Shown in pieces: positions 8,786 through 29,819 of a DNA stretch of 48,850 nt; position 1 is the stretch's first letter; each line of letters starts with the position of its first letter. Origin of the DNA: a virus. The position numbers and the translations under genes were made by a program. The notes beneath the pieces were generated by a model. That model saw nothing but the letters and a program-made list of their open reading frames with translations, searched no databases and was not told where the DNA came from. Where the stretch lies: IMG/VR virus record IMGVR_UViG_3300002460_000044, positions 1 to 48,850 of that record; one strand, written 5' to 3'.

Positions 8786-8824
8786 AAACCCTTCCTCCAT
8801 AAGTATCCGTGGGTCATATTTCAA

Positions 8825-13890: not shown

Positions 13891-13994
13891 AGGTCATCTA
13901 GATTACCCACAATTGCATTTAAAAAGACGTTTAATCAGCAAGAATGGATAAATTAAAGCTAAAGAGAGAATATATTTAATGTTTCGTAACATAT

Positions 13995-14940: not shown

Positions 14941-15011
14941 ATTATAACATATTTGGTAAGGTAGGGGGTGAAGGTACTCCATACTCCCCCTACCCAATCA
15001 AATGCACCTTC

Positions 15012-15926
15012 TTAGAGGGGTTCTATGTGGATTTCTTCTATTCTTTTATATGGTTTTCTAATTCCATCTTGACTCTGGTAAAACCCCCAAGGGTCAACAC
15101 CGTGTCCTTCATTCAAAGTTTCAGGCCAAAGATCACTTAAATTATTCCATCGTTTATCTTCATCGAATAAATTTAATTCCTTCGGTAAACTAGAAGCCTC
15201 ATCTTTACTCTTACCCCAATGGTGCCATACCCAACTTCTCATACTAGAAACCAATCGGTAACCCAATCGGTAGGCTCGGGCATTAAGGTCGTAGTCTTCT
15301 CCCCCACCAGGGTAAAACTTCTCGTCGAAGTAACCAACCCTGTCAAAAAATTCACGACGAAAGACAGGAAACCACATTGCAATAGCATCGATAACTCCTC
15401 GTTTGACAAGCGGGAAAGCCTCTGGTATATCGCTAACTCGTTCTTTGAGGTCTTCATAATTCCCTGCACAGAGATAATTCCAATCTTCTTCTGTGTAAGT
15501 TTCCTTATATTCTATTATATCAATATACTCACCATGATCTCTACCATAGCCCCACAGTGGTACTCGAGGGCTCTCAGGACATACTGCGAGTATTTTCTCA
15601 TCGGTAGCAAATTCATCAAGTATCCCTTGGAACCAAGAAGGGTGCATTGCTTCCGTATCGTCGTTAAGAATACCTATGTAAGGAATATTATTTCTATAAG
15701 CGATTGAAGCCATTTCGTTAGCTGCTTTCGCAAACCCCAGGTTTCTATAACTTCTAATCCATAGATGGGTAAGTTTATGATATTTAGTGTACGCCTCATC
15801 ATCTACTGTTTGGTCTAATACAAATATTCGCATCTTTTCGTTATCCGTATACTTTAAAAAGGTTTCTAAACATCTACCAATGTAATCACTTCTGACTATA
15901 GGAATACAGATAGCTAATTCTGGCAT
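15012..15926 (-). CDS. Family-2-like (GT-A) glycosyltransferase
   Basis: 304 aa. LAICIPIVRSDYIGRCLETF..MRIFVLDQT, NLGFAKAANE and ILNDDTEA (DxD-type) motifs. SD GAGGAG lies 5 nt before the ATG. Confidence 0.65.
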   Translation of the reverse strand: MPELAICIPIVRSDYIGRCLETFLKYTDNEKMRIFVLDQTVDDEAYTKYHKLTHLWIRSYRNLGFAKAANEMASIAYRNNIPYIGILNDDTEAMHPSWFQGILDEFATDEKILAVCPESPRVPLWGYGRDHGEYIDIIEYKETYTEEDWNYLCAGNYEDLKERVSDIPEAFPLVKRGVIDAIAMWFPVFRREFFDRVGYFDEKFYPGGGEDYDLNARAYRLGYRLVSSMRSWVWHHWGKSKDEASSLPKELNLFDEDKRWNNLSDLWPETLNEGHGVDPWGFYQSQDGIRKPYKRIEEIHIEPL

Positions 15927-16564
15927 TTTAGCTCCTCATCTGTTAATTCTGAAATGAATTTAAAAGTGGTATCCCCATCCCAAGGAAATGGATCCCATTC
16001 TTCTTCCATCTGCCTCATACCATTCCTGCCTTTAGAATCGGCTACGTTTATATCTTCTACGTGTCCATGAACCATTAAGGGATTACAAGTACAGTATGAA
16101 AGTAACCCTTCAGGTCGCTTTTCTCGATTGTAATGCTGATCCGCCACTTTGTATTCTCTTTCCATGAGAACCTGATATACCAACTGAGGGGAAGAATTGA
16201 CTGGTTTGGTTGAATCGGGAGTTTCATTATAAGGCTGGGGAAAAGTGATTTGCCAGCCTGGAGCCTTAAAAATTTTAGAGAAGCCCATATTTTCTGCTCT
16301 CTGGAGAAAAATATTAGCTGTATTAGTATCCCACTTGAGAACCTCGAAGTTATCATCGTGCCTCCATCCATGAACTAAAAGATCCACCCAATCCCTGTAT
16401 GGATTAAGTAGTTTAATAAAATCCGCCGTCATTCGGCCAGGGATAGCGAACATATTTACTTTAAATTTAGGGTACTTTGATTTCCAATACAATAGAAAGT
16501 TCATTCCGTTCCTATCATATTTATTTTCGAAATCGTCAAAGTCCAAGCAAATTGTCGAACTCAT
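15914..16564 (-). CDS. NodB/CE4-like polysaccharide deacetylase-like protein
   Basis: 216 aa. CLDFDDF resembles the TFDDG motif and LLVHGWRHDD resembles H(S/T)xxH. FKVNMFAIPG is also present. Motif-level call only. Confidence 0.4.
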   Translation of the reverse strand: MSSTICLDFDDFENKYDRNGMNFLLYWKSKYPKFKVNMFAIPGRMTADFIKLLNPYRDWVDLLVHGWRHDDNFEVLKWDTNTANIFLQRAENMGFSKIFKAPGWQITFPQPYNETPDSTKPVNSSPQLVYQVLMEREYKVADQHYNREKRPEGLLSYCTCNPLMVHGHVEDINVADSKGRNGMRQMEEEWDPFPWDGDTTFKFISELTDEELKCQN

Positions 16565-17498
16565 TCATCATCCTTTCCAAGGAATACTTATCCTCGATAT
16601 ATTTTCTAAGTTTTTTAGGTTCTTCTTTCGGTAACTTTATCATTTCTACCGCTTCTTGGTGGGTCTGATATAAATATTCATGAGACCATATATTCCTGCT
16701 ACCATAAAAATCATTTACTACTGGGGTAATTCCTTTTGCCATAGCTTCTCCTACAGCATAGCAAAAACTCTCTTTCATTCCTGGATGTAATAATATGTCT
16801 ATATTCTCATACCACTGGTTCATATCGTCTTGAGACGGGTACAGCGTAACTACTTTCCCCAATCCTCTACTCTCAATATAATGATTGTACATCACTCCCC
16901 AGTAAGGGGTACCACCTTCGTGCTGGCCTCTTATGTGTAGCCTCCACTTTGGATTTTCTTTATATAAAGTATTGAATATATCCAAACCTCCCATGTGGTT
17001 CTTCGGCATCCACATATCACCAAGCACCATACCTAGTTGATAACCGTCAGTTTTCTTTTTCTTTAAGGTAAACTTCTCTAAGTTCACAGATGGCCTTATT
17101 AACTTTAATTTACCTTTCCAGGTAGGAGCCTTCTCCAATATATATTTCTCAATGTGCGGTGCTATACAGATTCCTTGATCAATAAAATCTATGTAATGTT
17201 GTTCGTAGAAGGGTACGTAAGCGTTCCAGACATCCCAATCGATCATCCTGCAAACTATCTTTGGCTTCTTGTTATTATTCCAATCGGGGGTACGACTAAC
17301 CCCTTCTACTCCGTTATATAATTTCCACAAGTAGTTTATATTCCCCTCAAGCCACTCCACGTAATATATATCCGCCCATTGAGCCAGATACTCACTAGCC
17401 CCACGTTCGTATTTAACCTCATGACCTTTTTTATCCCAATGGTCAATAATATCCTGACAAAATTTCTTACCAGTATTGTCCGCTACAGCAATTTTCAT
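16536..17498 (-). CDS. GT-B fold (GT4-like) glycosyltransferase
   Basis: The track ORF starts at TTG 17522. I prefer ATG 17498, which overlaps the upstream stop as ATGA. An EX7E motif ESFCYAVGE is followed by AMAKGITPVV. Confidence 0.6.
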   Translation of the reverse strand: MKIAVADNTGKKFCQDIIDHWDKKGHEVKYERGASEYLAQWADIYYVEWLEGNINYLWKLYNGVEGVSRTPDWNNNKKPKIVCRMIDWDVWNAYVPFYEQHYIDFIDQGICIAPHIEKYILEKAPTWKGKLKLIRPSVNLEKFTLKKKKTDGYQLGMVLGDMWMPKNHMGGLDIFNTLYKENPKWRLHIRGQHEGGTPYWGVMYNHYIESRGLGKVVTLYPSQDDMNQWYENIDILLHPGMKESFCYAVGEAMAKGITPVVNDFYGSRNIWSHEYLYQTHQEAVEMIKLPKEEPKKLRKYIEDKYSLERMMNEFDNLLGL

Positions 17499-18196
17499 TT
17501 TCTTTTTAAAACTATTATCCAATCATGTCCTTTAACTTCTTTACCAATTCCTTCTGCAAGCTCTAATAATTTCCATTCAGAATTAGTATCTAAATATTTT
17601 AGAACCTTTTTTCTTGAATATGAATTAGTATATTCATTGGAATAGAGCTTTTCTTCTGGTGTACCTCTATGATCTATTATATTTTTAATCTCATGCTCTT
17701 CCGACTCAATAAATGGAACCCATCCGACCACGATAACCAGCTTCTTAGCTACTCGACAATGCTCATCCATCGCCTCCTCAAAGCTGTTCATATGGTCAAC
17801 TACGTGGCGAGAATATACTACATCCCAGCTTTTATCTGGTTGGTCTATTTTGTGGATTGAAGGATTGTAATCAAAAAACATATTCCCAAATTTTCCTTTA
17901 CACCATTCAGTATTTTTGGGAATTACATCTAAGCCCAGATAGAAAAATCCAGGTTTTCCAAACCAATCAATTTCCTTATCATCTCGTAATGCTTCAAAGG
18001 TGGTTCCAGAACCTGCTCCATAATCTAAGAAAGTATCATTTTTTACATACTTTTTGATTGCATAGAGTTGGGAAGGATGGTTTGGGCCGTTTCCTCCTCC
18101 CCTACAAAGAGTAGGTACATCCGGGGTATTAAACCATAGCTTTTCTGGATTTACTTTTGACACTGGCCTTAGATAATTTACGGGATTTTGTTCCAT
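17495..18196 (-). CDS. Class I SAM-dependent methyltransferase
   Basis: Motif I is FLDYGAGSGTT. The track start 18271 overlaps the upstream gene by 94 nt. Internal ATG 18196 has SD AAAGGA and reduces the overlap to 19 nt. Confidence 0.6.
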   Translation of the reverse strand: MEQNPVNYLRPVSKVNPEKLWFNTPDVPTLCRGGGNGPNHPSQLYAIKKYVKNDTFLDYGAGSGTTFEALRDDKEIDWFGKPGFFYLGLDVIPKNTEWCKGKFGNMFFDYNPSIHKIDQPDKSWDVVYSRHVVDHMNSFEEAMDEHCRVAKKLVIVVGWVPFIESEEHEIKNIIDHRGTPEEKLYSNEYTNSYSRKKVLKYLDTNSEWKLLELAEGIGKEVKGHDWIIVLKRK

Positions 18197-19140
18197 TCTT
18201 TTCCTTTCGCTAAGTAATTTTCTATTAGTTCTCCTAATTGGGCCATACGACAAGCAGATGTAAACTCCCAATGCTCACTTTCACACTCTTGGTCAGGTAT
18301 ATCTTTTAACATTTCTATAGCTTGTTTTGGTGTACTAAAAAACCCTACTGCTGGGCAAGTTAGCATCAGTTCCATCCCAGGGGCATATTGCTGACACAAC
18401 TTTCCACCGGCCCGTAGTACTTTACCTACCCGATTACTCCAATAACCCCAACAATTAGGATTGACACTAAATCCTAGTACTACCTTACTTCTAGCTATTA
18501 ACGCATTATATGCAGCACCATAAACAGCAGGGACAGCTTCAAAACCTTCTTTTATCCATTCTTCATAATTCCACGAGAATATTTTTACAGGTATTTCCTT
18601 GTTAATCTCTGTCAGAAAAGGCACTCTATCTCCCTGCTTTAAATAACTTCCAGTAAACACCACGTCATATTCTTTTGGTGACCCTCTAAAGGTAGGTAAA
18701 TCCCCATCACACACATCCATCTGAAAGTAACAAGGTTTTATTCCTTGTTTTACGTATTCAGGGAAAAGTCCTCCTTCTCCTGATAAATATAAATCAGCTG
18801 CTCTAGCCATTCCCAAATGCCAATCTGGAAAGCCTTGATCCCACATGTAATCCCATACCCAATATAGGACGGGGGCTCCACTTAGTTTCCTTAACTTCTC
18901 AGTGAAACTCCCATCGTAGAAGTGGTGCCATTTACAAATAATGTTTATATCAGCCTTTAAATCTTCTGGCACATCATACTTACCTTTAGGAAATCCCTCG
19001 ATAACATACTCCCGCCAAGCATCTCTGGGTATTCTATGAACTGTGTTACCTAGCCTCTCCAATTCTCTAGCTAAATGAACTTCGTCTGCTTCTTCACCTA
19101 CGTAGCCTTTTTGGTAATTGCCAATGAAATTTATTATCAT
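18178..19140 (-). CDS. CgeB-like / GT-B-like glycosyltransferase candidate
   Basis: 320 aa. DVVFTGSYLKQGDRVPFL and WSNRVGKVLRAGGKL resemble the CgeB/Glyco_trans_1_2 pattern. ATGA overlap with the upstream stop. Weakest of the GT calls. Confidence 0.4.
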   Translation of the reverse strand: MIINFIGNYQKGYVGEEADEVHLARELERLGNTVHRIPRDAWREYVIEGFPKGKYDVPEDLKADINIICKWHHFYDGSFTEKLRKLSGAPVLYWVWDYMWDQGFPDWHLGMARAADLYLSGEGGLFPEYVKQGIKPCYFQMDVCDGDLPTFRGSPKEYDVVFTGSYLKQGDRVPFLTEINKEIPVKIFSWNYEEWIKEGFEAVPAVYGAAYNALIARSKVVLGFSVNPNCWGYWSNRVGKVLRAGGKLCQQYAPGMELMLTCPAVGFFSTPKQAIEMLKDIPDQECESEHWEFTSACRMAQLGELIENYLAKGKEWNKIP

Positions 19141-19646
19141 AATTCCACCTTACTCATACTAGTATTTTTATCTATTCGTTTAAATAACTCCCACTTATTT
19201 ACTTTGTGGGTATTTACAAACTCGGCTACAGCTTGGACTACTCCAGGACTAGATTCATCACAATCGTGGAAGAGCATTACTCCGTCTTCTTTCATGTAGG
19301 GATACCACGATTTAATATCTGTCTTGCACCCCTCGTATGAATGATCCCCATCTATAAACAAAACAGCTATTTTCCCATTTGCCCAAGTTTTAGCAATCTC
19401 CTCACTTTTTCCTTGCTTAAATACCGTTCCTTCAATAAATACTGGGTCTTTAATATCTATACCAACTACAGAAACACCTGTCTTTGCCGCTTGACTAGCA
19501 ACCCACAAACTCCTACCCTTATCCACCCCAATTTCTACATAACTGTCCCCTGCATTTAATTTCTCTATCTCTGGTATCAATATCTCAGCATCAAAGGTGC
19601 TAAATGCCCCTTGTGGTGCTTCTTTGTCTAGTCTTTCGAGATCCAT
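19137..19646 (-). CDS. Class I SAM-dependent methyltransferase (Methyltransf_24 / CmcI-like)
   Basis: 169 aa. YVEIGVDKGRSLWV (motif I), VVGIDI, and LFIDGDHSYEGC, which is typical of this family. Confidence 0.6.
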   Translation of the reverse strand: MDLERLDKEAPQGAFSTFDAEILIPEIEKLNAGDSYVEIGVDKGRSLWVASQAAKTGVSVVGIDIKDPVFIEGTVFKQGKSEEIAKTWANGKIAVLFIDGDHSYEGCKTDIKSWYPYMKEDGVMLFHDCDESSPGVVQAVAEFVNTHKVNKWELFKRIDKNTSMSKVEL

Positions 19647-20118
19647 AGTTTCTTTCCCAATTCCTTTCTGCGTTTATTCTCGCTTGTACAGCCAAATCAT
19701 AATCTTTAAAACAACCAGCCCATTTTGCTATTCTATTCCTCTTTAAGGAAACAAACCAGTATTTTCCTTTATATAAAGTTACTCCTGGTATTCCACTAGT
19801 ATTATTACTTTGTAGTCCTTTATTTAATACATTTTCACTTCTTGTAACAACTCTCAAATTTTTTCTTCTGTTATCTAATTTATTTCTATTTTTATGGTCA
19901 GTCTCAACTTTAATTAAAATTCCTCTTGGATTTCCTAAGATAATCCTGTGCATATAGATTTTCCTATTCTTACCATTAACCCACTGATTTCTATGAGCAT
20001 AACCATTAGATCTATCAAAACACCATTTCCACTGGTTTAGCCAATTAAAGTCTTCATCGTCAACTAAAGCATATCTGCCTTGTGTTAATTTAATTTTTTT
20101 TACTGTATTTGCCTTCAT
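19600..20118 (-). CDS. HNH-AP2 homing endonuclease inserted in the glycosylation island
   Basis: From internal ATG 20118: MKANTVKKIKLTQGRYALVDDEDFNWLNQWKW..GYA...MHRIILG..VETDHKNRNKLDNRRKNLRVVT (HNH_3), then SGIPGVTL..KYWFV...WAGCF.DYDLAV.AR (AP2 domain). It overlaps the upstream GT by 29 nt and the downstream methyltransferase by 47 nt. Confidence 0.8.
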   Translation of the reverse strand: MKANTVKKIKLTQGRYALVDDEDFNWLNQWKWCFDRSNGYAHRNQWVNGKNRKIYMHRIILGNPRGILIKVETDHKNRNKLDNRRKNLRVVTRSENVLNKGLQSNNTSGIPGVTLYKGKYWFVSLKRNRIAKWAGCFKDYDLAVQARINAERNWERNYGSRKTRQRSTTRGI

Positions 20119-20899
20119 AATCAGGCGTAAATACCCTTTCTGGAGACTTTGGTATATCAAATGTAGCCTCCCATATTCCATCATCAGTTCTATTAAATCC
20201 CCATTTTTCTCGGAAGTAGGCGTAGTTTCGGAATCTATATGAATCATTTTCTGGTAGGAAAGTGCCTGAAGTTTGGGAGAAGTGATAGACGATACAATTA
20301 GTATTCTGGTATGGCTGTACTCCTGCAAGTTTAATTTTATATTCTAAATCCGAATCTCCGTTCGATCCAAAAGGATCGAAGTTAATATCATATCCTCCAA
20401 TTAAATCCCACAAATCTCTTCTTATAAGAAAAGGTAGATTAAATCCTGTTCTAATTCCTTGTCCTTCATATTCTTCTGCAAACTTATTCCATTTTTTTTC
20501 ATTAAAATCGTTTATACCCCCACAATCAAAAACTTCAAATGTTGGTGCTCCTGAATTCGGTTCTACAAGTTTCGGCGAAATACACAACATCTCTTCGGAT
20601 AATCCAGCCAATAAGTTTTCTAGCCACCTTTCTGGATATACCATGTCATCATTTGTAACTAATATCCAGGGATGATTTGTAGTTTGGGCAGCTGCATTTA
20701 CCGCAATACATTGTCCTTGTTGATTGATTTTTATATCACCATTTATAACATTATAAATACCATTTACTACTACACTTATACTAAGTGGTGTTCTTATAGT
20801 TGTTTCGGTTAAAGATCGATAGCAACGGCTTAAAACTGGCTTAGTCTTTTGTGTAGCCAAAGTAGGGATGATAACTAAAATATCGTTAGGTAATATCAT
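20090..20899 (-). CDS. GT-A fold glycosyltransferase
   Basis: ILVIIPTLATQ... and VTNDDMVY (DxD-type). I prefer ATG 20899 (SD GGAGAAG 7 nt upstream) over track start 20935. Confidence 0.55.
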   Translation of the reverse strand: MILPNDILVIIPTLATQKTKPVLSRCYRSLTETTIRTPLSISVVVNGIYNVINGDIKINQQGQCIAVNAAAQTTNHPWILVTNDDMVYPERWLENLLAGLSEEMLCISPKLVEPNSGAPTFEVFDCGGINDFNEKKWNKFAEEYEGQGIRTGFNLPFLIRRDLWDLIGGYDINFDPFGSNGDSDLEYKIKLAGVQPYQNTNCIVYHFSQTSGTFLPENDSYRFRNYAYFREKWGFNRTDDGIWEATFDIPKSPERVFTPDYEGKYSKKN

Positions 20900-22004
20900 T
20901 ATTAAACTTCTCCATACTGCTAATAATATAATCAAGATCAGATTTTTTTAGCCCCTGATGACACCCAAATAATAATCCATGTCTATTCACCCGCAGGGCT
21001 TCTGGATAATTCCGGTTATTTACCGTAATATATGGCTGATTTATTAAGGGCATTATAGTTCTGGTAGTAATCCCTTTTTTCTCTAAATACAAGATAAGTT
21101 CATTTCTCCTAAGATGAAAGAAAGGAAACATCATAAAGGCGTGATTATCTAAGTAGCTGTCTGGGTGGTGGTTACCCAGTTTTTTTGATAAGTACCTAGC
21201 GTTTTCTTGCCTCTTACTTAACATATTCTGCCAATTTTCCAGTTCTACCAACCCCAAGGCAGCTTCCATCTCCGTACTCCTACTTGAATAACCTGGATAA
21301 TTAAATCTAAATCTTGCTTCAATTACTTCTGGATTGTACTTATCATCGTCATCTATTTTCATATATTTGTTGTCCCTACCGTGAAAGACTAGACTACGGA
21401 TAAGATCAGCTAGTTTTTGGTCATTGGTACAAGCCGTACCGCCTACACCAGTAACAAGAAGGTGAGCAATGTAAAACGAAAAACAGGTTACATCTCCAAT
21501 TCCAACTCCATCTACAAACATAGTTTCGCAAGAATCCTCAATGACCTTTAATTTATACTTCCTGGCAATTGCCATAATTTCTTTCATTTTAGCTGGCTTA
21601 CCTAGTAGGTGGACTGGCATAATTGCACGAGTTTTTGGTGTAATTGCAGCCCCGATTAAATCTGGATTTAGATTAATATCCTTACCTATATCAACTACTA
21701 CTGGTGTCAGATTATTATGTACAACCACGTTGTAGGTCGCTACAAAAGTCACAGAAGGTATGATAATCTCATCCCCGTCTTTCCACTTACCTAGTATCTT
21801 CAAAGCGTGTATGGATGCTTGAAGGGCCGAAGTACCACTATTTGTGAACACCCCATATTGGTTATTGTGAAGTTTGGAGAATTTATCCTCAAACTCGGCT
21901 GTCATCGGGCCATAGGAAAGTCGGTTGCTTTTCAAAGCTTCAACTACTTTATCTATATGTTTCTGGCTCACGTGGATCGTGCCTACATCTATCGTTTTCT
22001 GCAT
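20886..22004 (-). CDS. DegT/DnrJ/EryC1-fold sugar aminotransferase/dehydratase with His at the PLP-lysine position (ColD/E1-like?)
   Basis: 372 aa. FTNSGTSALQASIHAL is present. In FSFYIAHLLVTGVGG, H aligns with the K of the canonical SFHxxK motif. Confidence 0.7.
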   Translation of the reverse strand: MQKTIDVGTIHVSQKHIDKVVEALKSNRLSYGPMTAEFEDKFSKLHNNQYGVFTNSGTSALQASIHALKILGKWKDGDEIIIPSVTFVATYNVVVHNNLTPVVVDIGKDINLNPDLIGAAITPKTRAIMPVHLLGKPAKMKEIMAIARKYKLKVIEDSCETMFVDGVGIGDVTCFSFYIAHLLVTGVGGTACTNDQKLADLIRSLVFHGRDNKYMKIDDDDKYNPEVIEARFRFNYPGYSSRSTEMEAALGLVELENWQNMLSKRQENARYLSKKLGNHHPDSYLDNHAFMMFPFFHLRRNELILYLEKKGITTRTIMPLINQPYITVNNRNYPEALRVNRHGLLFGCHQGLKKSDLDYIISSMEKFNNDIT

Positions 22005-22651
22005 ATAAACATAAAATTATAATGGCTAGAATCGGAATTTAACTGCTCCCCCTCGGCTGTTTCTTGTATAGTTAACTCCGCTTCTTCAAAGGCTTCTTCC
22101 AATGCTTGCTTAGAATATTCTTGCAGGTGGGTATCCTCCCAGGGTTCCTCTTCTTCTTTTTTACCCATCATATTTCGATCGTTTAGATTTGTTCCTTCAT
22201 TCACAAAAGAACGCCACAGAATAATAATTACATACTTTCTAGCTACTTTAGCCATTTCTTTTATGGCTGATTTATAGTCATCGAGATGATCTAAGGTGTG
22301 CATACAAACCACAGCATCCCAAGAGTTGTTTGGTTCTTTTAGTTTTCTGGCATCCTGTATCTCGAAACTTCCTTCTGGAAATGTATCTTTAGCTATGGCC
22401 ACCATCGCCCAAGAATAATCTATACCCTTGTATTCAAATCCATAATCTTTATTCAATTCATATAATGGGCCTGTACCACAACCAACGTCAAGAAAGCCCT
22501 CAATTCCTAACTCTTTCATCTTGTCCAATAAATAAATTCGGTGCTTCTGTGACCCCATCTGGTAGGTTGATTTAAAGGAATCCCAGTAAGTTCTTTCAGT
22601 TTGTCCGTTGTGCATCTTCCTCCATTTTACGATCATATTCTTCTGGGTCAT
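21989..22651 (-). CDS. Class I SAM-dependent methyltransferase
   Basis: Motif I FLDVGCGTGPL, and VVCMHTLDHL. Start ambiguous: ATG at 22651, 22636, or 22615 (the last with SD GGAGGAAG). Confidence 0.65.
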   Translation of the reverse strand: MTQKNMIVKWRKMHNGQTERTYWDSFKSTYQMGSQKHRIYLLDKMKELGIEGFLDVGCGTGPLYELNKDYGFEYKGIDYSWAMVAIAKDTFPEGSFEIQDARKLKEPNNSWDAVVCMHTLDHLDDYKSAIKEMAKVARKYVIIILWRSFVNEGTNLNDRNMMGKKEEEEPWEDTHLQEYSKQALEEAFEEAELTIQETAEGEQLNSDSSHYNFMFICRKR

Positions 22652-23255
22652 TGTCTAAAAGCTGCAAATTAGTACCAGCCATAATATGAGTTATAATGGT
22701 CTTGTTAGTATCAGTCCACTTACCTAACCGCTTATACAAATCTTGCTCTGCTAACAAGGAAAGATTCTCATTCCACCTGCCTATTTCTTCAAAATGCTTC
22801 TTTGTAATCATCATTAGTCCAGCATCTCTACCACCCCTCATACTCTCTTGATCAAATGAATCTCTATTATAAGTGGCCTTCACGTATTCTCTGCTTCTTG
22901 GGACTTGATCTGGAAATACTGCGTCATAACCTTGTTCAATATATTGCCTAAGACCTGGCAACCATCCTTCGTGAACAAAAACATCGTTTTGAATAAATAC
23001 TAGGTACTCACCTCTAGCAACTTGTGCTCCTAGATTCATGCAAACGGTGTAGCCTGGATCATTGGGTAAATTAAAGTATTTATCCACTTTCAATACGTTG
23101 TAATCATCTCTTATTGGAAATTTAGGTACTGGATTCATCACAATCAGTTCGTAGTCTTCTGGATCAGTAAACTTGGTTATATTGGCAATACAAGCCATCG
23201 ACATGTGAGCGTTAAATCTGGAGTTGTTAAAACAGGTCAAAATTATACTCGTCAT
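22596..23255 (-). CDS. GT-A fold glycosyltransferase
   Basis: 219 aa. MTSIILTCFNN..., DPGYTVCMNLGAQVARGEYLVFIQNDVFV. ATGA overlap with the upstream stop. Confidence 0.55.
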   Translation of the reverse strand: MTSIILTCFNNSRFNAHMSMACIANITKFTDPEDYELIVMNPVPKFPIRDDYNVLKVDKYFNLPNDPGYTVCMNLGAQVARGEYLVFIQNDVFVHEGWLPGLRQYIEQGYDAVFPDQVPRSREYVKATYNRDSFDQESMRGGRDAGLMMITKKHFEEIGRWNENLSLLAEQDLYKRLGKWTDTNKTIITHIMAGTNLQLLDNDPEEYDRKMEEDAQRTN

Positions 23256-24133
23256 AGATTTGCCTTTATATCCCTTTCTAAACTGGTAAGCAAGGGTCGC
23301 CTATAAATACTTTTTAGTACCTGAATATCAGCTATGGCACTTTTCACCCCAAAGTCAGTATTCTGATAAACTACCTCGATATTTTTCTTTCGACTGGCCT
23401 TTTTGAATATCTCGGCTAGTTTGTTCATTGAGGTTCCTAACCCACTACCAACATTGATAAATTTACCCTCAAAATCTGGGTTCTTAATCGCTTCGAGAAT
23501 GATCTGGACTATATCCACTATACTGACAAAATCCCTAACTTGCGTACCATCCCCGTGAATTACCAATTTCTTGTCCTGCACCCCATTTAAGAACCTATTT
23601 ATCACACTGTCATCCTGCGGGGTCGGGTTAAAACCATAGATATTAAAAAATCTAAATACAACAATCGGAAGTCTATATCTTAAAGCCGCACACAAGTACT
23701 CACATTCTATCTTGCTTTGCCCATAAGGGTTATTTACTTCCAACTCGTCTGTTTCTCTTATCGCTGTCCTCCCAACAATTTTATATACAGAAGCCGAAGA
23801 AGGAAATATAAACTTGGCTTTGTTTTGCTCGGCTGCCAATAATGCTCTAAGAGTACCTTTGGTGTTCAAGGCTAAAGTAAACTCTGGGTCTTTTATTGCT
23901 TGGCTAACCGAAACTTGAGCCGCTAAGTGGATAATTACGTCAGCATCTTTGGTTTCTTCCATAAAATCCGGACTGAATATATCTTTTCCGTCACGTATAT
24001 CCCAACCAACAGCGTTTGGTAAGGCCCGCATTAGATGAGTACCAATGAAACCACGACTGCCTGTTACGACAATTTTCTTTTGTTTGGTTAGTTTTTTTAG
24101 CATTTCATTTAGGGAGCCAAGTTTCGTTGTCAT
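23252..24133 (-). CDS. NAD-dependent nucleotide-sugar epimerase/dehydratase (extended SDR)
   Basis: 293 aa. Rossmann motif VVTGSRGFIGTHL, SSASVY, and catalytic YGQSK (YxxxK). Confidence 0.75.
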   Translation of the reverse strand: MTTKLGSLNEMLKKLTKQKKIVVTGSRGFIGTHLMRALPNAVGWDIRDGKDIFSPDFMEETKDADVIIHLAAQVSVSQAIKDPEFTLALNTKGTLRALLAAEQNKAKFIFPSSASVYKIVGRTAIRETDELEVNNPYGQSKIECEYLCAALRYRLPIVVFRFFNIYGFNPTPQDDSVINRFLNGVQDKKLVIHGDGTQVRDFVSIVDIVQIILEAIKNPDFEGKFINVGSGLGTSMNKLAEIFKKASRKKNIEVVYQNTDFGVKSAIADIQVLKSIYRRPLLTSLERDIKANL

Positions 24134-24809
24134 ACGCCTCCATCTGGTCGAACTGCCCTACATAATCTTTTAATTCAGCATTGTGTTTTTGCATCTCTGG
24201 TGTAAACGATTCGGGATAACCCCAATTAGTCTTTCCAAAAGGATGATAAGCTCTAAGCTTAGTGGTTCTACCCGTTTTCCAGCCATTACCTTGTAACCTG
24301 CTGCAAATCCATCTTTCTTCGTTATTTCTGCCACTACTTATTTTATGTTCCCAACCGTTTACTTTTCTTACTGCCTCTGTCCTCATTATTCTCATTACCG
24401 CCCCGCACATATTTACTTCCTTCACATCTTCTGGGTCTTTTGGGTCAAAACCAACCGCCCCAATAAGAATGTGAGGATGTAAAGAAATTGCTCCGTAAGT
24501 TGGTCTTTCATCCATAAACTTAACCATTTGTGAAAGCCAATCTGGCTCTGTCTGCGGTACATAAATATCATTATCACTCGTAATAAAATATTCGCTTTCA
24601 GATAGAGCCAAGGCAATATTCCACGCTCCGTGTATCCCAATATTTTCCGATAAACCAACATACAAATCCACTTCATCCTTAAATTCCTCATTTCCGCCGT
24701 TATCAATAATTGTTAGCCTATACGGGGTCTTAGTACGCTCTTTCAGATACTTAATTGTATTTGCAGTGAAATGCTGTCTTAGAAACGTGGTGAGAAATAT
24801 ATCTATCAC
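24105..24809 (-). CDS. GT-A fold glycosyltransferase
   Basis: 234 aa. RLTIIDNGGNEE, NIGIHGAWNIAL, ITSDNDIYV. The GTG start overlaps the upstream stop as GTGA. Confidence 0.55.
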   Translation of the reverse strand: MIDIFLTTFLRQHFTANTIKYLKERTKTPYRLTIIDNGGNEEFKDEVDLYVGLSENIGIHGAWNIALALSESEYFITSDNDIYVPQTEPDWLSQMVKFMDERPTYGAISLHPHILIGAVGFDPKDPEDVKEVNMCGAVMRIMRTEAVRKVNGWEHKISSGRNNEERWICSRLQGNGWKTGRTTKLRAYHPFGKTNWGYPESFTPEMQKHNAELKDYVGQFDQMEAYDNETWLPK

Positions 24810-25603
24810 TCTACCCCCTGTTTTGAATGGACTATGTACAAGTATTCATCTATTGGTTTTGAGTGGTACTTTCTTGTGTAGGAATACCATAAAGCAAAAT
24901 CATTTCCCCACGGGTTACCTAATTCTTTAATTATCTTATTTGGTTCAGCTTCATGATCTACCATAAAGAATTCACGCAGTTCTGGATATTTTATTTGGTA
25001 ATAAGCCGAGAAATCATACGGACTTCCCATATATAAATCCCTAACTCCTCCGTAATTTATCTCCGTACAATCTATATCCTTAATATGCGTAGGAGGATAA
25101 GCCCTCAAGTCATCATAAACACCTCTATGCCAAACAAACGTCCCATTTACTATATTTCCCCCTCCAAACACCTCGTGGCCTACTTTTAGTTTTTTTGGCT
25201 TAAAGGTTCCTCTCAAAACGGTCCCGCCGTCTGCATGAACATACCTAGCCCCAAAGTTAAACATTTTATACTTAGGCCACTTTCTAAAAAAGTAATCCAC
25301 CCTTTCCAAATAATGCTTCTCATATTCGTCATCACTATCCAAAAGGCAAAATATCTGTCCCTGAGCGTGCTTGAAGCCTTCATTCAAGGCTACCACCCTT
25401 TCATTGTGAGACACATTTACCACATTCAGTCTTGAATAAGGCGGTATCTCAAAGTCTTGGGTACTACCGTCATTGACTACTATATGTTCGTAGTCCCTAA
25501 AAGTTTGAGCCTCCACACTATCAATAGCCCTTTTTAGACTCTCCTTCCTATAATTATTCCAAATGTTTACTGGAGTTATAATTGACAGTCTTGGACTAGC
25601 CAC
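24806..25603 (-). CDS. Family 2 glycosyltransferase
   Basis: LSIITPVNIWNNYRKESLKRAIDSVEAQTFRDYEHIVVNDGS and LDSDDEY (DxD). I prefer GTG 25603 (SD AAGGAG 7 nt upstream) over track start 25636. Confidence 0.7.
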   Translation of the reverse strand: MASPRLSIITPVNIWNNYRKESLKRAIDSVEAQTFRDYEHIVVNDGSTQDFEIPPYSRLNVVNVSHNERVVALNEGFKHAQGQIFCLLDSDDEYEKHYLERVDYFFRKWPKYKMFNFGARYVHADGGTVLRGTFKPKKLKVGHEVFGGGNIVNGTFVWHRGVYDDLRAYPPTHIKDIDCTEINYGGVRDLYMGSPYDFSAYYQIKYPELREFFMVDHEAEPNKIIKELGNPWGNDFALWYSYTRKYHSKPIDEYLYIVHSKQGVE

Positions 25604-26366
25604 CCCACTTCTCCTTATACTTCTCCCTGCTCTCATTCATCAAATCAGGGGTTTCGACCATCCCCGTGCTAGTACCCCCAATCACATGGTAAATATTAAC
25701 CTTTTTAGTACTGGCATACTTTTTACCTGCCTCATCCATCCTCTTGAGGAAATCCAAGTCCTCTAAATAAACAAAAAACTGCTCGTCAAATGTTCCAATT
25801 TCCCTAAAAAGGGATTTCCTAGCCAAAACGCAGGAAAAGTCCCTAAAATCGCTAAAAGCCTCTCGAAAATCTTTGCCCTCCCAAAGTTTTGCCTTATCAG
25901 AAGCCTCTACCGCCCTAGAAAAAGGCTCACCATACATAGGAGTAGCCATTACTAGGTCAAGCTCTTGCAGGGCCTCCTGAAGCCCCTCAAGCCAAGAGTC
26001 AAAAACCATAGCGTCATTATTAAGCAAGCAGACGTACTCGCCACTACTTACCCTAATTGCTTGATTCCAAGCAGCGGCTATTCCCTTATTTTGTTCATTT
26101 ACTATTACTTTATCTACTTTGTAATCCGAAAGTTTAGCAAGTTTTATTGGAGAAGCATTATCCACCAATATAATTTCGTAAGGAAGTTTAGTGTATTCTC
26201 TCACCGATCCTATACAATTTCCTGTGTAGTGAAGCAAAGGATAGTTGAGATTATGACAAAGAATAATTATTGAAGTTAATCCTGCGACTTCGCTAGGATT
26301 ATCGGCAACATTTTGTGGGCTATTTATAGTAGTCCAGGTTTCCTGACTAATGGTTTCAGTTTCCAT
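25596..26366 (-). CDS. Family 2 glycosyltransferase
   Basis: 256 aa. TSIIILCHN, EIILVDNASP, NKGIAAAWNQAI, LLNNDAMV. Confidence 0.65.
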   Translation of the reverse strand: METETISQETWTTINSPQNVADNPSEVAGLTSIIILCHNLNYPLLHYTGNCIGSVREYTKLPYEIILVDNASPIKLAKLSDYKVDKVIVNEQNKGIAAAWNQAIRVSSGEYVCLLNNDAMVFDSWLEGLQEALQELDLVMATPMYGEPFSRAVEASDKAKLWEGKDFREAFSDFRDFSCVLARKSLFREIGTFDEQFFVYLEDLDFLKRMDEAGKKYASTKKVNIYHVIGGTSTGMVETPDLMNESREKYKEKWGG

Positions 26367-27114
26367 AGGATTTATTTATTTCCTGTACTTTTTGTAATAG
26401 TTGATTTTGGCTAAAGTTAGCAAACGCTTCTAAGTCTTTAGGCAAACATCTGCCGCCAACGCCTTTGTGGCCTTTATGGCCTACGTAAAAGTGATGTTGA
26501 CTTCCCCAAGGATGCTCAAGAAGCCTATCTCTAATATAGGTATAATTGGCACCTATTTTCTGGGCTATATCGTTCATTTCCTCGGCAAAGACTACTTTTA
26601 AAGCAAAAAAGCTGTTGAAAGCGTATTTGGTCATCTCGGCAGTTATTGTGTCAGTCATCTTAGGTTGGAGATACTTATACCTAGCGTCGTAAATAGCTTT
26701 TACCTCATTACCGTAGTTTGGATTGTCCGCCCCAATTATTACCATTACCGGTCTTTTAGCGTCTAGTTCCCATTGGCTTTCGGTAAGAAACTCTGGATTC
26801 GATACCACTCTATCCATATTCATACTTTCCATAATTGCTCTGGCTGTTCCTGGAATTACTGTGGAACGAATAATATAGAGGGGATTCGCCCTTATCCCCT
26901 CAATTTGCTTGATGGTGTCTCTGATTGCCGTTGTGTCACAAGTACCTTCCTTGGTGGGCGTAGGCAAACAGAGGAATACGTAGCGGCAATTTGCAGCATC
27001 ATTTAAGGTAATATTGCTATCACCATTTATATCAAAGTATTTAGTTATTCCAAAGGCTAGGGCGGTAGCCTTGCCGACTACACCCCAACCAATAATACAA
27101 GAATTTTCCATCAA
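26356..27114 (-). CDS. UDP-glucose/GDP-mannose 6-dehydrogenase-like protein, short form
   Basis: 252 aa. GWGVVG Rossmann motif, NPEFLTE, KYAFNSFFALKVVFAEE, and catalytic-Cys motif GGRCLPKD about 27 aa before the stop. The usual C-terminal UDP-binding domain appears to be absent. Confidence 0.6.
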   Translation of the reverse strand: MMENSCIIGWGVVGKATALAFGITKYFDINGDSNITLNDAANCRYVFLCLPTPTKEGTCDTTAIRDTIKQIEGIRANPLYIIRSTVIPGTARAIMESMNMDRVVSNPEFLTESQWELDAKRPVMVIIGADNPNYGNEVKAIYDARYKYLQPKMTDTITAEMTKYAFNSFFALKVVFAEEMNDIAQKIGANYTYIRDRLLEHPWGSQHHFYVGHKGHKGVGGRCLPKDLEAFANFSQNQLLQKVQEINKSYGN

Positions 27115-28442
27115 TAGAGTAAAGGTTCAAGCTCATGTTTGAATATAAAATCTAAGTTTCTTTCCTTCCTCAGTCTTGTGGCCATGGCCATTTCTGGATG
27201 TTGTAGTCTGGCCGCTATTGCTCCTGCCGTATCATAATGATAATCTTTCTCGTATTTCTTTCTTTCATCATCCGAAGCGTTCTGCGGCCCGTAAGCTGTA
27301 TTTGTATTTCCATCCATAGCGTTCATTATATCTATATTACTGGAGTACTTTCTAAATATGGCGTTCTCACCGAAAATATTTCTGAAAGGCGGAAAGTCAA
27401 AGTTTAAAACCACGACTTGCTTAGTCAGACCAGCTTCCTGAGTAATTAGAGAATAGCTTTCACTAGCCGAAGGCATAATAAATACATTTGAAAGAAGCTG
27501 GAAATCCCTTACCACGCTTTGAGGCACTTCTACCTTCCAATTCTCGTTTTCCTCGCTGGTAAAAGTAATTTCATTGCTGTTTAGGCCATAATCTATGGCT
27601 ATCTGCTTTAGCTCTTCCCTATAAGTAACTTTATCTCCGCCAGTAGAGTGGAAGTCAATTATTATTACTCTTACTGAAAGGTCGAAATCTTTCAATTTAG
27701 CCATTGTTTTGATGACGTATTGAACCTGCTTGCCTCTATCTAACCTTATCGGATAGGTACAAATAGCGTCTGCCGAAAGTATCTTTTTCTTGTCAACCAC
27801 CTCCTGTACTTCCTTACTTATACCCAAAAAACCGCAAATGTCAGTTGGGTGGTGAACTACTTTTACCAACTCATCACTAACCCCAAAGTTCTCGGCTATT
27901 CTCGGAATTGAATAATGATTAAAGAAGACGTAGTAGGAGTTAGGAAATGGTTTTCGGACTAAGTCGGTGTACTCACTACCAAAATTCTGCAATGCTCCCA
28001 AGGTGACTGGACTAGTTGCCGAGTGTATCCAGTGCAACCACTTAGCATTTTTCTTAGCGGCTACTCTTCTTGAGGCAAAATTATGCTTTAAAGCAGCGGG
28101 CTGATAAATAATATCGTGGGTTAGTACTACACTACCATCAGTAATTATTTCATCAAGCCTTCTTTCAATATTAGCCACATCTTCATCAAAAGTGGGGTCT
28201 TTTTTTATTTCGTTGTGGCAAGGAACAAGGGGAATTTTTTCTATAGTTACATCTGGATGGGCGTACATCTGGTCTGGCTGGAAACTTTCTTGGACAATAA
28301 CAGTCACTTTATACCTGTTACGGGTAAACATCTTAATCTGATCCTGAACCACCCGATTAAGACTGTAAGCTTCACTTATTTCGGAAAATGTCGTAAATAG
28401 GATTATTTTCCTCGAGAAGTCAGTACCTTCCATTATTTTCAA
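27111..28442 (-). CDS. GT-B fold (GT1/GT4-like) glycosyltransferase; first gene of the island
   Basis: 443 aa. EX7E motif ESYSLITQE followed by AGLTKQVVVLN. The track start is TTG 28442; ATG 28433 is an alternative. Confidence 0.55.
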   Translation of the reverse strand: MKIMEGTDFSRKIILFTTFSEISEAYSLNRVVQDQIKMFTRNRYKVTVIVQESFQPDQMYAHPDVTIEKIPLVPCHNEIKKDPTFDEDVANIERRLDEIITDGSVVLTHDIIYQPAALKHNFASRRVAAKKNAKWLHWIHSATSPVTLGALQNFGSEYTDLVRKPFPNSYYVFFNHYSIPRIAENFGVSDELVKVVHHPTDICGFLGISKEVQEVVDKKKILSADAICTYPIRLDRGKQVQYVIKTMAKLKDFDLSVRVIIIDFHSTGGDKVTYREELKQIAIDYGLNSNEITFTSEENENWKVEVPQSVVRDFQLLSNVFIMPSASESYSLITQEAGLTKQVVVLNFDFPPFRNIFGENAIFRKYSSNIDIMNAMDGNTNTAYGPQNASDDERKKYEKDYHYDTAGAIAARLQHPEMAMATRLRKERNLDFIFKHELEPLLY

Positions 28443-29262: not shown

Positions 29263-29535
29263 CTATAATGTAGTAGTCGTGCTAGTACTCGTGCTGGTAG
29301 AAGTAGTAGTACTAGTGGAGCTACTTGTGCTAGTCGTAGTCGTACTGGTACTTGTAGTAGTCGTGGAAGTTGACGTACTGGTGGTTGTCGTTACATCCCC
29401 AAACACCCACTGCGTACCGTTATAAACTACCCATTGGTTAGTATCATTTTTGAAGAAGAAATCTCCTGCGATTGGCTCGCTTGGAAATGTTGTTTGGACT
29501 CTTCTTCTTGCTGTAAAACTACTAAACTTTGTCAT
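29263..29535 (-). CDS. Capsid-adjacent small protein, paralog 3: 48-aa N-domain plus 41-aa Ser/Thr tail
   Basis: 90 aa. The N-domain carries GDFFFKNDTNQWVVYNGTQW. S/T tract at 29269..29391. It is one of three tandem paralogs downstream of the capsid gene. Confidence 0.6.
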   Translation of the reverse strand: MTKFSSFTARRRVQTTFPSEPIAGDFFFKNDTNQWVVYNGTQWVFGDVTTTTSTSTSTTTTSTSTTTTSTSSSTSTTTSTSTSTSTTTTL

Positions 29536-29537
29536 AA

Positions 29538-29810: not shown

Positions 29811-29819
29811 AATTCATCC

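Follow-up and report, generated by a model that had tools for sequence, protein, structure and literature searches.

Over a quarter of an uncultured podovirus-like phage genome encodes soluble sugar-adding enzymes, probably for a coat of mucin-like glycoproteins

The DNA analysed here (the window) covers 48,850 nt of a 48,916-nt contig, and thus nearly the whole genome, of an uncultured podovirus-like phage in which soluble sugar-adding enzymes take up more than a quarter of the genome. The block encoding them (15012-28442, approximately 27% of the 49-kb genome) lies amid the head-to-tail genes, between the MCP (capsid) gene (30211-31128) and an SU10-type adaptor gene (4632-5780). Such a position of phage glycosyltransferase (GT) genes, within or adjoining structural genes, is also seen in virion glycosylation of the mycobacteriophage type. 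No replication genes were found in the 49-kb genome, and the non-structural region at 38-44.5 kb contains no ORF of integrase size (approximately 300 aa or more), every ORF there being 170 aa or shorter. The block holds six GT2 enzymes, two GT4-type GT-B enzymes, one CgeB-like GT, three methyltransferases, a GalE-like SDR, a DegT-fold enzyme, a truncated nucleotide-sugar dehydrogenase and a CE4-fold protein, listed here from the first gene to the last:

27111..28442, minus strand: divergent GT-B, GT4-like glycosyltransferase, first gene of the module (Pfam Glycos_transf_1)
26356..27114, minus strand: nucleotide-sugar dehydrogenase-like protein, 252 aa (Pfam UDPG_MGDP_dh_N and central domain)
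25596..26366, minus strand: GT2 (GT-A) glycosyltransferase (PF00535, 74.4 bits)
24806..25636, minus strand: GT2 glycosyltransferase (PF00535, 59.5 bits; DSD at residue 100)
24105..24809, minus strand: GT2 glycosyltransferase (PF00535, 39 bits; DND at residue 79)
23252..24133, minus strand: SDR, GalE-like NDP-hexose epimerase type (PF01370, 9e-38; galE is the best NCBIfam match)
22596..23255, minus strand: GT2 glycosyltransferase (PF00535, 37.4 bits)
21989..22651, minus strand: class I SAM methyltransferase (Methyltransf_11/23/25, ~1e-17)
20886..22004, minus strand: DegT-fold PLP/PMP enzyme with His for the Schiff-base Lys (PF01041, 5e-75)
20090..20935, minus strand: GT2 glycosyltransferase (PF00535, 28.1 bits; likely start 20899, an alternative ATG with an SD-like motif)
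19600..20118, minus strand: HNH homing-endonuclease gene inside the module (HNH_3, 6e-9)
19137..19646, minus strand: Methyltransf_24/TylF-like O-methyltransferase (PF13578, 1.5e-17; TylF, 7e-5)
18178..19140, minus strand: CgeB-like (Glyco_trans_1_2) glycosyltransferase (PF13524, 22.4 bits, below the cutoff of 25)
17495..18271, minus strand: class I SAM methyltransferase (Methyltransf_11, 2e-8; likely start 18196, an alternative start)
16536..17522, minus strand: GT4-type GT-B glycosyltransferase (Glycos_transf_1, 8.8e-12)
15914..16564, minus strand: CE4-fold/DUF2334-like putative sugar deacetylase (homolog-family Pfam, invariant residues, AF2 model)
15012..15926, minus strand: GT2 glycosyltransferase, last gene of the module (PF00535, 28.8 bits)

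Most of the enzyme families proposed in an earlier, sequence-only reading of this DNA were recovered. The six ORFs described as GT-A-like (15012, 20090, 22596, 24105, 24806, 25596) score 28.1-74.4 bits against Glycos_transf_2 (PF00535), above its gathering cutoff of 23.3 bits, and the two described as GT-B with E-X7-E motifs match Glycos_transf_1, with the motif at residue 251 in the 16536 protein (ESFCYAVGE) and at residue 328 in the 27111 protein (ESYSLITQE). Pfam also confirmed the three proposed methyltransferases (17495, 19137, 21989) and the proposed SDR, which is of the Epimerase type; on reading its sequence, SSASVY and YGQSK are present and the acidic pair of 4,6-dehydratases is absent. 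The CgeB-like call for 18178 is backed by a Pfam score just below the cutoff and by the Glyco_trans_1_2 match of its homolog in locus L031. The 15914 protein itself has no direct Pfam match, and its CE4-like assignment is upheld by its homolog family, in which six of 20 members match DUF2334 and three of 20 Polysacc_deac_1, by the invariant D10, D11, H65 and H69 (an Asp-Asp motif and H-x3-H metal ligands), and by its AF2 model (pLDDT 91), for which the 19 best PDB matches in Foldseek are all CE4 deacetylases, in agreement with the deformed (beta/alpha) barrel of that family.

Two tailoring enzymes were described only partly correctly. The UGDH-like protein (26356) has the N-terminal and central domains, but the C-terminal nucleotide-sugar-binding domain is absent. 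Its match to NCBIfam TIGR03026 spans model positions 73-295 of 413, its counterparts in relatives are equally short (251 aa), and GGRCLPKD near the C-terminus looks, by eye, like a catalytic-Cys motif. The 20886 protein belongs to the DegT family as suggested, but the replacement of its catalytic Lys by His had been overlooked: in the segment SFYIAHLLVTGVGG the H is aligned with the K of 7b0m and 3bn1 and with the first H of the SFYPAHH motif in the E1 dehydrase 3bcx, and it is retained in 14 of 16 homologs from related loci. The protein thus departs from the DegT/DnrJ/EryC1 sugar aminotransferases, which have the Schiff-base lysine in an SFxxxK motif. In this it resembles the ColD/E1 3-dehydratases, and the His points to chemistry of that type. 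Compared with any textbook pathway the sugar-tailoring set looks incomplete, with no 4,6-dehydratase motif and a truncated dehydrogenase.

That the junctions overlap holds for all 16 when computed on the longest ORFs, but the overlaps range from 4 to 94 nt instead of the 4-50 nt claimed for most of them; the stop-start overlaps are ATGA (two), GTGA (one) and TTGA (one). The earlier gene list omitted the HNH_3 endonuclease gene (19600-20118), which is an intruder and no pathway enzyme; in L031, homologs of the genes flanking it stand without any gene between them. There is a second gene of this kind:

14560-14940, antisense: HNH_3 endonuclease gene (Pfam)

In addition, the window encodes six proteins with Ser/Thr (S/T) tracts, the pure tracts ranging from 43 to approximately 1085 residues:

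29820..30146, minus strand: small protein directly after the MCP gene, N-terminal domain of ~50 aa and Ser/Thr tail of ~59 aa (translation)
29538..29810, minus strand: second paralog, Ser/Thr tail of ~43 aa (translation)
29263..29535, minus strand: third paralog, Ser/Thr tail of ~45 aa (translation)
8825..12193, minus strand: 1122-aa protein, almost pure S/T (translation)
5948..8824, minus strand: 958-aa protein, globular part of ~640 aa, Ser/Thr tract of ~300 aa and C-terminus of ~50 aa (translation)
4308..4628, minus strand: 106-aa protein just downstream of the adaptor gene, Ser/Thr tail of ~51 aa (translation)

The three paralogs share an invariant P, G, G and W and are kept in relatives, in most of which the tail of the second is 42-46 residues long; no candidate homolog of their N-domain was found in the protein database. 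The 1122-aa protein, which we propose as a mucin-like backbone, has ordinary residues only at its ends, ~25 at the N-terminus and ~20 at the C-terminus, with a Ser/Thr tract of approximately 1085 residues in between. Serine is encoded by all six of its codons (AGY 255, TCN 246) and threonine by all four, and TRF detected short imperfect tandem DNA repeats and nothing else; with both serine codon families mixed and no underlying DNA tandem repeat, the S/T composition is under selection at the amino-acid level. The 958-aa protein (likely start 8785) contains a widespread domain at residues 350-628, and its homolog in L037 also has an S/T tail. The small protein after the MCP gene (29820..30146) is proposed as a glycan acceptor, and the MCP itself has neither an S/T tract nor an S/T extension.

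The order and position of the block are kept in a large clade of uncultured phages, down to 55-58% MCP identity. S/T genes lie on both sides of the module in these relatives, in which the homolog of the last GT2 (15012) is directly followed by large S/T-tract ORFs; the S/T tails are retained even though module gene number varies from one relative to another. In both GC content and codon usage the block agrees with the tail genes. The suggestion that the block entered a structural operon as a module does not agree with this conserved order, composition and abutting of S/T genes at the far end; judged on these features, the block does not seem to be a recent insertion, and the inserted element is the adjoining cassette 12212-14501. 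The gene at 13995-14501, earlier taken for a structural flank, belongs to this mobile three-gene cassette and is not demonstrably structural in this lineage.

The genomic linkage between the first GT family and S/T-tract ORFs extends well beyond this phage. Among 80 viral loci collected by the first GT (27111-28442 family) alone, at 26-94% identity, 66 have an S/T-tract ORF near it (84% threshold within the fetched stretch) as compared to one of 14 controls (Fisher p = 8e-8, with loci that are not phylogenetically independent and with few controls, themselves relatives of the test loci). The S/T-tract ORF is upstream of the GT on the same strand in 64 of the 80 loci (median gap 783 nt) and within 100 nt of it in ten. 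Island-bearing relatives devoid of S/T-tract proteins would have spoken against the sequence-only reading; at this threshold, 14 of the 80 loci show no tract in the fetched stretch, and the reading thus largely withstood this check. Two of the 12 exceptions inspected (L092, L119) contain S/T or T runs that are shorter and fall under the threshold, and for most exceptions the fetched stretch did not show a homolog of this MCP. The linkage also holds in loci with no detected homolog of this MCP (L103, L110-L112, L118, L122-L124). All island-bearing relatives with sequence after the MCP gene have S/T-tract ORFs there, and MCP relatives without the GT have none. Distant GT homologs in MAG contigs (L036, L037, L041, L043, L044, L045, L047) adjoin S/T- or T-rich proteins as well.

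The first GT (gene-caller start 28433) is a candidate initiating protein O-glycosyltransferase. Its AF2 model (pLDDT 87) has MshA, GlgM, BshA, HepE and WaaG as best PDB folds, nearest to retaining GT4 enzymes. Profile searches against PDB sequences found no relatives, the fold matches are generic GT-B, and GtfA is absent from the best 50 of them; none of the GTs of the block specifically resembles an established protein O-GT. The first GT is highly conserved, with 987 homologs and identity of at least 59% throughout the 120 matches listed. A tblastn search with it against 50,697 deposited phage records gave no match at E <1e-3, and this GT, the one of the block that was compared, shows no homology to mycobacteriophage GTs at that cutoff.

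The claim that no island ORF has a long hydrophobic segment is supported by a hydropathy scan of window ORFs of at least 50 aa (19-residue window, Kyte-Doolittle >=1.6), where the only exception was the N-terminal TTG extension of 20090, a start-codon artefact. No scanned ORF has more than two such segments (five small ORFs have one and two holin-like ORFs of 55-62 aa have two), and neither a multi-pass membrane protein nor a SecA- or SecY-sized ORF occurs, in agreement with the predicted lack of lipid-carrier machinery; Pfam and NCBIfam gave no NTP_transferase-type match either, as expected from the reported absence of a sugar-1-phosphate nucleotidyltransferase. Lipid-carrier assembly encoded by the phage (Wzx/Wzy, ABC, synthase, PglB/PglL/WaaL) was rejected, as no polytopic initiating phosphoglycosyltransferase, flippase, polymerase or oligosaccharyltransferase/ligase turned up among the scanned ORFs, though the host could supply parts. 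The conclusion of carrier-independent cytoplasmic assembly fits the soluble enzymes, the missing carrier genes and the S/T linkage, but it was overstated: GTs of lipid-linked pathways are usually soluble too, so the absence of membrane GTs leaves host-made lipid-linked glycans as possible targets. Similarly, the nine GTs and three methyltransferases are real, but a single complex methylated glycan was claimed too firmly, since several simpler glycans on different carriers fit equally.

It seems that the best reading of these data is cytoplasmic, stepwise O-glycosylation of the S/T-tract proteins, and we consider it rather probable that the block supplies the enzymes of a phage-encoded virion-protein O-glycosylation system whose other half is the dedicated S/T carriers. 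Phage virions assemble in the cytoplasm. The whole region would be expressed late, in the minus-strand head-to-tail block of overlapping genes, and, as the phage lacks a nucleotidyltransferase, the NDP-sugars would come from the cytoplasmic pool of the host. The GalE-like epimerase, the DegT-fold enzyme with its His (by ColD/E1-like 3-deoxygenation), the truncated dehydrogenase and the putative deacetylase of CE4 fold may tailor some of them. The GT4-like enzyme (27111-28442) would then add the first sugar to a Ser or Thr residue in the disordered tracts. Chain growth directly on the protein would be the task of the six GT2 enzymes, the second GT4 enzyme and the CgeB-like GT, and the three SAM methyltransferases would cap or decorate the sugars. 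The particle would thereby bear mucin-like glycoproteins in the form of tails or fibres, built on the three small paralogs whose genes follow the capsid gene, the two very large proteins encoded before the head-tail adaptor and the small one after it; the tracts of one such set would offer roughly 1,500 potential acceptor hydroxyls. As soluble sugar-adding enzymes sit between genes for Ser/Thr-dominated proteins of the virion block, the phage is probably coated with mucin-like glycoproteins.

The enzymes could instead serve to alter a glycan of the host envelope (O-antigen, teichoic acid, capsule or S-layer glycan) in the infected cell, acting at the cytoplasmic face on lipid-linked intermediates that the host makes and exports, and the S/T proteins would then be unrelated spacers or adhesins. 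Surface-polysaccharide clusters usually contain soluble GT2 and GT4 enzymes, DegT-fold enzymes, SDRs and methyltransferases, which the block resembles; the best NCBIfam matches are weak ones to EPS, teichuronic-acid and rhamnosyl transferases, and a missing Wzx, Wzy or initiating transferase could come from the host. However, the tight and repeated adjacency of the first GT to S/T-tract ORFs in very divergent loci makes this quite unlikely, as do the location of the module amid the head-to-tail block and outside an early or lysogeny region, the lack of an integrase-sized ORF at 38-44.5 kb, and the use of 27% of a genome without replication genes. Sugar hypermodification of phage DNA against restriction has precedent in virus-encoded GTs building glycans on DNA bases (Pyle 2024, as cited in PMC12619734), but it is highly improbable here, where the near-complete genome has no ORF long or similar enough for a dNMP hydroxymethylase, DNA polymerase or other base-modification enzyme, and the module lies in the structural block, linked to S/T proteins.

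Glycosylation of other virion proteins (MCP, tail) as in mycobacteriophages, with the S/T tracts as bare flexible linkers or bristles, or as substrates of one or two enzymes only, is also unlikely. Nine GTs exceed the need of one glycan type, and the variation in module gene number where S/T tails stay would suit this explanation, whereas the linkage to S/T ORFs even where a homolog of this MCP is undetected, and the plain MCP itself, argue against it. Virion glycosylation in mycobacteriophages involves few GTs. Its targets, according to PMC12363180 and PMC12619734, are capsid and tail-tube subunits, glycosylated at their C-termini by the phages' own GTs, as in Che8, Corndog and Myrna (Freeman et al. 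2023). The system proposed here, O-glycosylation of the S/T carriers, would likewise use phage GTs on its own virion proteins in the bacterial cytoplasm, but with six dedicated pure Ser/Thr-tract proteins as acceptors and with nine GTs and seven tailoring or methylating enzymes; as the MCP lacks an S/T extension, the acceptor probably differs from the mycobacteriophage type. If true, virion glycosylation in this phage would be far more elaborate than in this sole phage precedent.

Serine-rich-repeat adhesins of Gram-positive bacteria are O-glycosylated stepwise in the cytoplasm by soluble GtfA/GtfB (the initiator being a GT4-type GT-B) and then by further soluble GTs. The proposed system would resemble this in its long disordered acceptors, its soluble GT-B and GT-A enzymes and its independence of a lipid carrier, and genes for Ser/Thr-rich candidate acceptors do stand beside the GTs (six ORFs here, and the 66 of 80 loci). 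The first GT has the GT-B, GT4-like fold, but specific sequence similarity to GtfA was not found; no GtfB-like partner or accessory SecA2/SecY2 export was recognised, and the product would remain on the virus particle. Cytoplasmic Ser/Thr O-glycosylation of a secreted or assembled structural protein is also known from flagellin islands, the Bacillus exosporium protein BclA and spore-coat CgeB-SpsA. Acceptors and genetic context differ there and the homology is at the superfamily level, but those clusters similarly mix GTs, DegT-fold enzymes, SDRs and methyltransferases, and a CgeB-type GT is found here too. Among viruses of eukaryotes, giant viruses have methylated sugars as part of their glycans. 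Chloroviruses and mimiviruses glycosylate autonomously, with many soluble GTs and tailoring enzymes making complex glycans on structural proteins or fibrils (PMC4691112, PMC7019647). The phage shares with them a virus-encoded set of soluble enzymes, which would act independently of host membrane machinery, but their genomes are 300 kb or more, whereas here a 49-kb phage devotes approximately 27% to such enzymes and the acceptors would be mucin-like S/T tracts.

The linkage between Ser/Thr tracts and the first glycosyltransferase of the enzyme block (the first GT; 27111-28442, minus strand, a divergent GT-B enzyme) recurs across viral loci and MAG contigs and is the strongest evidence that the family of this GT acts on such tracts. 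With the first GT as the sole query, viral contigs yielded 80 loci (26-94% identity), and an ORF with a Ser/Thr tract, defined as a 25-residue window of at least 84% Ser/Thr, was present in 66 of them against 1 of 14 controls (Fisher p = 8e-8; the loci are non-independent and the control set is small, because the TerL-protein scan for controls gave mostly close relatives). The tract ORF was upstream and on the same strand in 64 loci (median gap 783 nt) and at most 100 nt from the first GT in 10. These counts speak for the sequence-only reading, which had named island relatives without Ser/Thr-tract proteins as evidence against itself. Fourteen loci had no tract at this threshold; ten of the twelve inspected had no Ser/Thr tract in the fetched stretch, and L092 and L119 have shorter Ser/Thr or Thr runs, below 84%. 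All island-bearing relatives with sequence after the capsid gene have Ser/Thr-tract ORFs there, and of eight capsid relatives that are more distant and do not have the GT, seven are without such ORFs.

On MAG contigs, distant homologs of the first GT again lie beside Ser/Thr- or Thr-rich proteins. In a Luminiphilus MAG contig (L041, 9698-14117), a cellular homolog of 560 aa (41% identity) adjoins a protein of 138 aa that has a Tat-like signal and repeats of the form TTTSG/STSTSG; the arrangement may serve to glycosylate a secreted peptide. In Gemmatimonadaceae and Anaerolineales contigs the gene immediately before the GT encodes a protein with a Thr-rich tract. Other ORFs near the GT in the Luminiphilus contig are, by eye, PqqD-like, HprK-like, nucleotidyltransferase-like and sulfotransferase-like.

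Six Ser/Thr-tract proteins are encoded in the window. Three tandem paralogs of 90-108 aa (29263-30146) directly follow the capsid gene, and each has a conserved N-terminal domain of ~45-50 aa (P..P..GD.YFNT.TN.W..Y.G..W), for which a search of 5.8 billion database proteins found no candidate homolog, and a tail with 43-59 Ser/Thr residues. The tails of paralogs 2 and 3 have 42-46 Ser/Thr in most relatives (L048-L083, capsid identity 55-94%), which suggests a length constraint on them, and in the same loci that of paralog 1 varies from 63 to 104. The 1122-aa ORF (8825-12193) is Ser/Thr throughout save ~25 N-terminal and ~20 C-terminal residues. AGY and TCN are about equally frequent among its Ser codons, all four Thr codons are used, and TRF found short, imperfect tandem arrays only, so the ORF keeps its composition at the level of amino acids and is no simple DNA repeat. 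A 106-aa tract protein is encoded after the adaptor gene, and a 958-aa protein has a Ser/Thr tract of ~300 aa. The latter also contains a very common, unnamed domain (residues ~350-628; window positions 6900-8785) that matched 3,973 representative clusters at E <=1e-3 in proteins of 350-2,367 aa, had no Pfam or PHROG match, and was accompanied by a Ser/Thr tract in none of 150 representatives carrying it. Public gene calls at 29263-30146, at 8825-12193 and in loci L023 and L030 miss the tract ORFs, shorten them or place spurious ORFs on the opposite strand. This is an annotation blind spot: because standard gene callers miss or mis-strand the genes, Ser/Thr-tract proteins are largely absent from protein databases.

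The window makes up 48,850 of the 48,916 nt of a contig that was recovered at equal length from two samples with differing start points. From 1 to 38 kb nearly all genes are on the minus strand and make up a tailed-phage late block. The landmark genes, in transcription order, are:

39213-39662, small terminase, first in the order
35849-37345, minus strand, large terminase
33604-35823, minus strand, SU10/P22-type portal
30211-31128, minus strand, HK97-fold major capsid protein, ahead of the studied region
4632-5780, minus strand, SU10-type head-tail adaptor, after the studied region and followed by a fibre-like protein
975-2789, minus strand, beta-helix tailspike, after the fibre-like protein

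No ORF at 38-44.5 kb exceeds 170 aa, so the phage is without recognisable replication or nucleotide-metabolism enzymes, and the window has no tRNA genes. Promoter and terminator scans gave site counts not above those of shuffles. The best sigma-70-like match (28469-28441, minus strand; TTGACA, 17 nt, TG-TAGATT) falls in the sole intergenic gap of the block, immediately ahead of the gene for the first GT, and serves as no more than a lead.

The enzyme content read from the sequence was borne out by Pfam and NCBIfam: six GT2 enzymes, every one above the Pfam gathering score, two Glycos_transf_1 enzymes, both with E-X7-E motifs, one CgeB-type GT with a match near threshold, three SAM methyltransferases, among them one like Methyltransf_24/TylF, and one each of epimerase-type SDR, DegT-fold enzyme and nucleotide-sugar dehydrogenase. 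The product of 15914, called CE4-like from sequence, has itself no Pfam match, and the call is upheld by its homolog family, which matches DUF2334 and Polysacc_deac_1, by retained Asp-Asp and H-x3-H residues, and by a confident AF2 model with CE4 deacetylases as first structural matches. Sequence searches of 27111, 15914 and 18178 against the PDB gave nothing useful, and fold comparison alone was informative. The nearest solved folds to the first GT are the retaining GT4 enzymes MshA, GlgM, BshA, HepE and WaaG; these matches are generic, and neither they nor the PDB sequence searches tied the enzyme specifically to a known protein O-GT. As also described earlier, genes overlap, at all junctions within the block, and the island proteins have no membrane segments, barring an artefactual TTG extension of 20090; none of the window ORFs scanned has more than two hydrophobic segments.

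The tailoring enzymes make up no textbook pathway. The nucleotide-sugar dehydrogenase homolog (26356-27114) is consistently 251-252 aa across the clade and is without the whole C-terminal substrate-binding domain, as are all relatives examined, and its GGRCLPKD stretch resembles the catalytic-Cys motif. The DegT-fold enzyme (20886-22004) has a His (SFYIAHLLVTGVGG) at the Schiff-base Lys position of aminotransferases. This His matches the PMP-dependent 3-dehydratase E1, is kept in 14 of 16 relatives (Lys in two distant loci), and suggests 3-deoxy sugars; ColD likewise has His replacing the catalytic Lys. No obvious 4,6-dehydratase is present in the module, and by its sequence the SDR resembles epimerases of the GalE type rather than 4,6-dehydratases. 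In one relative (L030, GT identity 78%), two cytidylyltransferase-like (CTP_transf_like) genes were seen inside the module (12865-13296 and 14867-15301), and judging from these some clade members may activate their own substrate, for example a CDP-linked alcohol phosphate.

It is possible, with slightly less than even odds, that an uncultured, widespread podovirus-like clade makes true mucin-like glycoproteins, Ser/Thr backbones of up to ~1,100 residues that are densely O-glycosylated in the bacterial cytoplasm via a complete phage-encoded pathway and shown on the particle, either as long fibres or as a brush of glycans. The first GT would then represent a new protein O-glycosyltransferase family with specificity for Ser/Thr tracts, used also by bacteria on secreted Ser/Thr-rich peptides (contexts of L041, L043 and L044), and the acceptor genes would have been overlooked through gene-caller failure. 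In the mechanism that we propose, the first GT would initiate on Ser/Thr and the other eight GTs would extend the chains on the protein. The sugars would be drawn from host NDP-sugar pools; four enzymes (epimerase, 3-dehydratase-like enzyme, truncated dehydrogenase and deacetylase) would partly tailor them, and the methyltransferases would decorate them. Because virions assemble in the cytoplasm, the site of glycosylation would have to be cytoplasmic. Carrier-independent assembly, as proposed in the sequence-only reading, fits the gene content, which falls short of proof since lipid-linked intermediates of the host can be substrates of soluble GTs as well.

Glycosylation of other virion proteins, with the Ser/Thr tracts as plain linkers, seems unlikely to us. 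Remodelling of the host envelope by the module is quite improbable, as both the linkage to Ser/Thr tracts and the position of the block among structural genes speak against it, and glycosylation of DNA is very improbable because there are no base-modification genes.

The serine-rich repeats of Gram-positive adhesins are O-glycosylated stepwise in the cytoplasm. To our knowledge, glycosylation of the phage particle has been shown for a few mycobacteriophages only, where few enzymes take part and the glycans, on the ends of capsid and tail-tube proteins, are short. Mycobacteriophage self-glycosylation is documented at the C-termini of capsid and tail-tube proteins (PMC12363180, PMC12619734), and autonomous cytoplasmic glycosylation in giant viruses (PMC4691112, PMC7019647). 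The glycosylation of mucin-like proteins proposed here would work alike but differ in its dedicated carriers, in having far more enzymes, and in a first GT for which deposited phages gave no homolog; our literature search found no description of Ser/Thr-tract phage proteins linked to a GT cluster. Enzymes account for ~27% of the genome and the proposed Ser/Thr acceptor tracts for ~10%. If the proposal is true, self-glycosylation can take a major share of a phage genome and would employ dedicated mucin-like carrier proteins, and with close to a thousand homologs of the marker GT, the system would be common in environmental viromes. It would also provide a testable candidate for a new Ser/Thr-tract-specific protein O-glycosyltransferase family in the bacterial cytoplasm, of interest for glycoengineering, and raise the question of whether the brush would help the phage to adhere to biofilm matrix or host glycocalyx, protect it against proteases or grazers, or affect its colloidal behaviour.

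The other part of the sequence-only reading, that the block is a module inserted into a structural operon, did not stand, at least not as a recent event. The GC content of the block (38.7%) is like that of the tail genes (39.2%; head genes 44.1%), and in codon usage, too, the tail genes are its best match (r = 0.91). Capsid-protein relatives have the same genes in the same order, the 27111 homolog first, down to 55-58% capsid identity, and at 47-61% identity some have reduced versions. Homologs of the first GT number 987; among the 120 matches listed, all are at least 59% identical and ~440 aa long, on contigs of up to ~52 kb. Deposited phages gave no match to the block in a near-identity DNA search or to the first GT in a protein search, and judged by these comparisons the block's relatives are a large uncultured clade without a deposited relative. 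No host was assignable: MAG bins with related contigs are spread over unrelated taxa, and the contigs look like phage sequence that was mis-binned.

The real insertion is, judging by its distribution, a mobile accessory cassette at 12212-14501. Its genes p12212, p13378 and p13995, without family matches, are absent from every other locus of the clade and turn up again (87-94% aa identity) in an unrelated phage of siphovirus type, seen in three samples (L033-L035), where they lie between portal/MuF and prohead protease, with an HNH gene again adjoining. That these loci are chimeric assemblies broken at a Ser/Thr repeat was considered and rejected, given the same arrangement in three samples and the coherent siphovirus gene order. 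In several other clade loci large Ser/Thr-tract ORFs directly follow the last module gene; together with the absence of the cassette elsewhere, this points to an ancestral layout of capsid gene, small Ser/Thr proteins, enzyme module, large Ser/Thr proteins and adaptor. The HNH endonuclease genes of the window are:

19600-20118, minus strand, within the glycosylation module and absent from the earlier enzyme list
14560-14940, plus strand (antisense), beside the cassette
41351-41590, plus strand, outside the module

Their positions vary among relatives, with one HNH gene after the homolog of the GT2 enzyme at 25596 in L007 and none in the module of L031, which fits homing endonucleases. A 147-aa ORF at 511-954 (minus strand), without a Pfam match, has by eye a LAGLIDADG-like motif (AAGIIDGEGCI).
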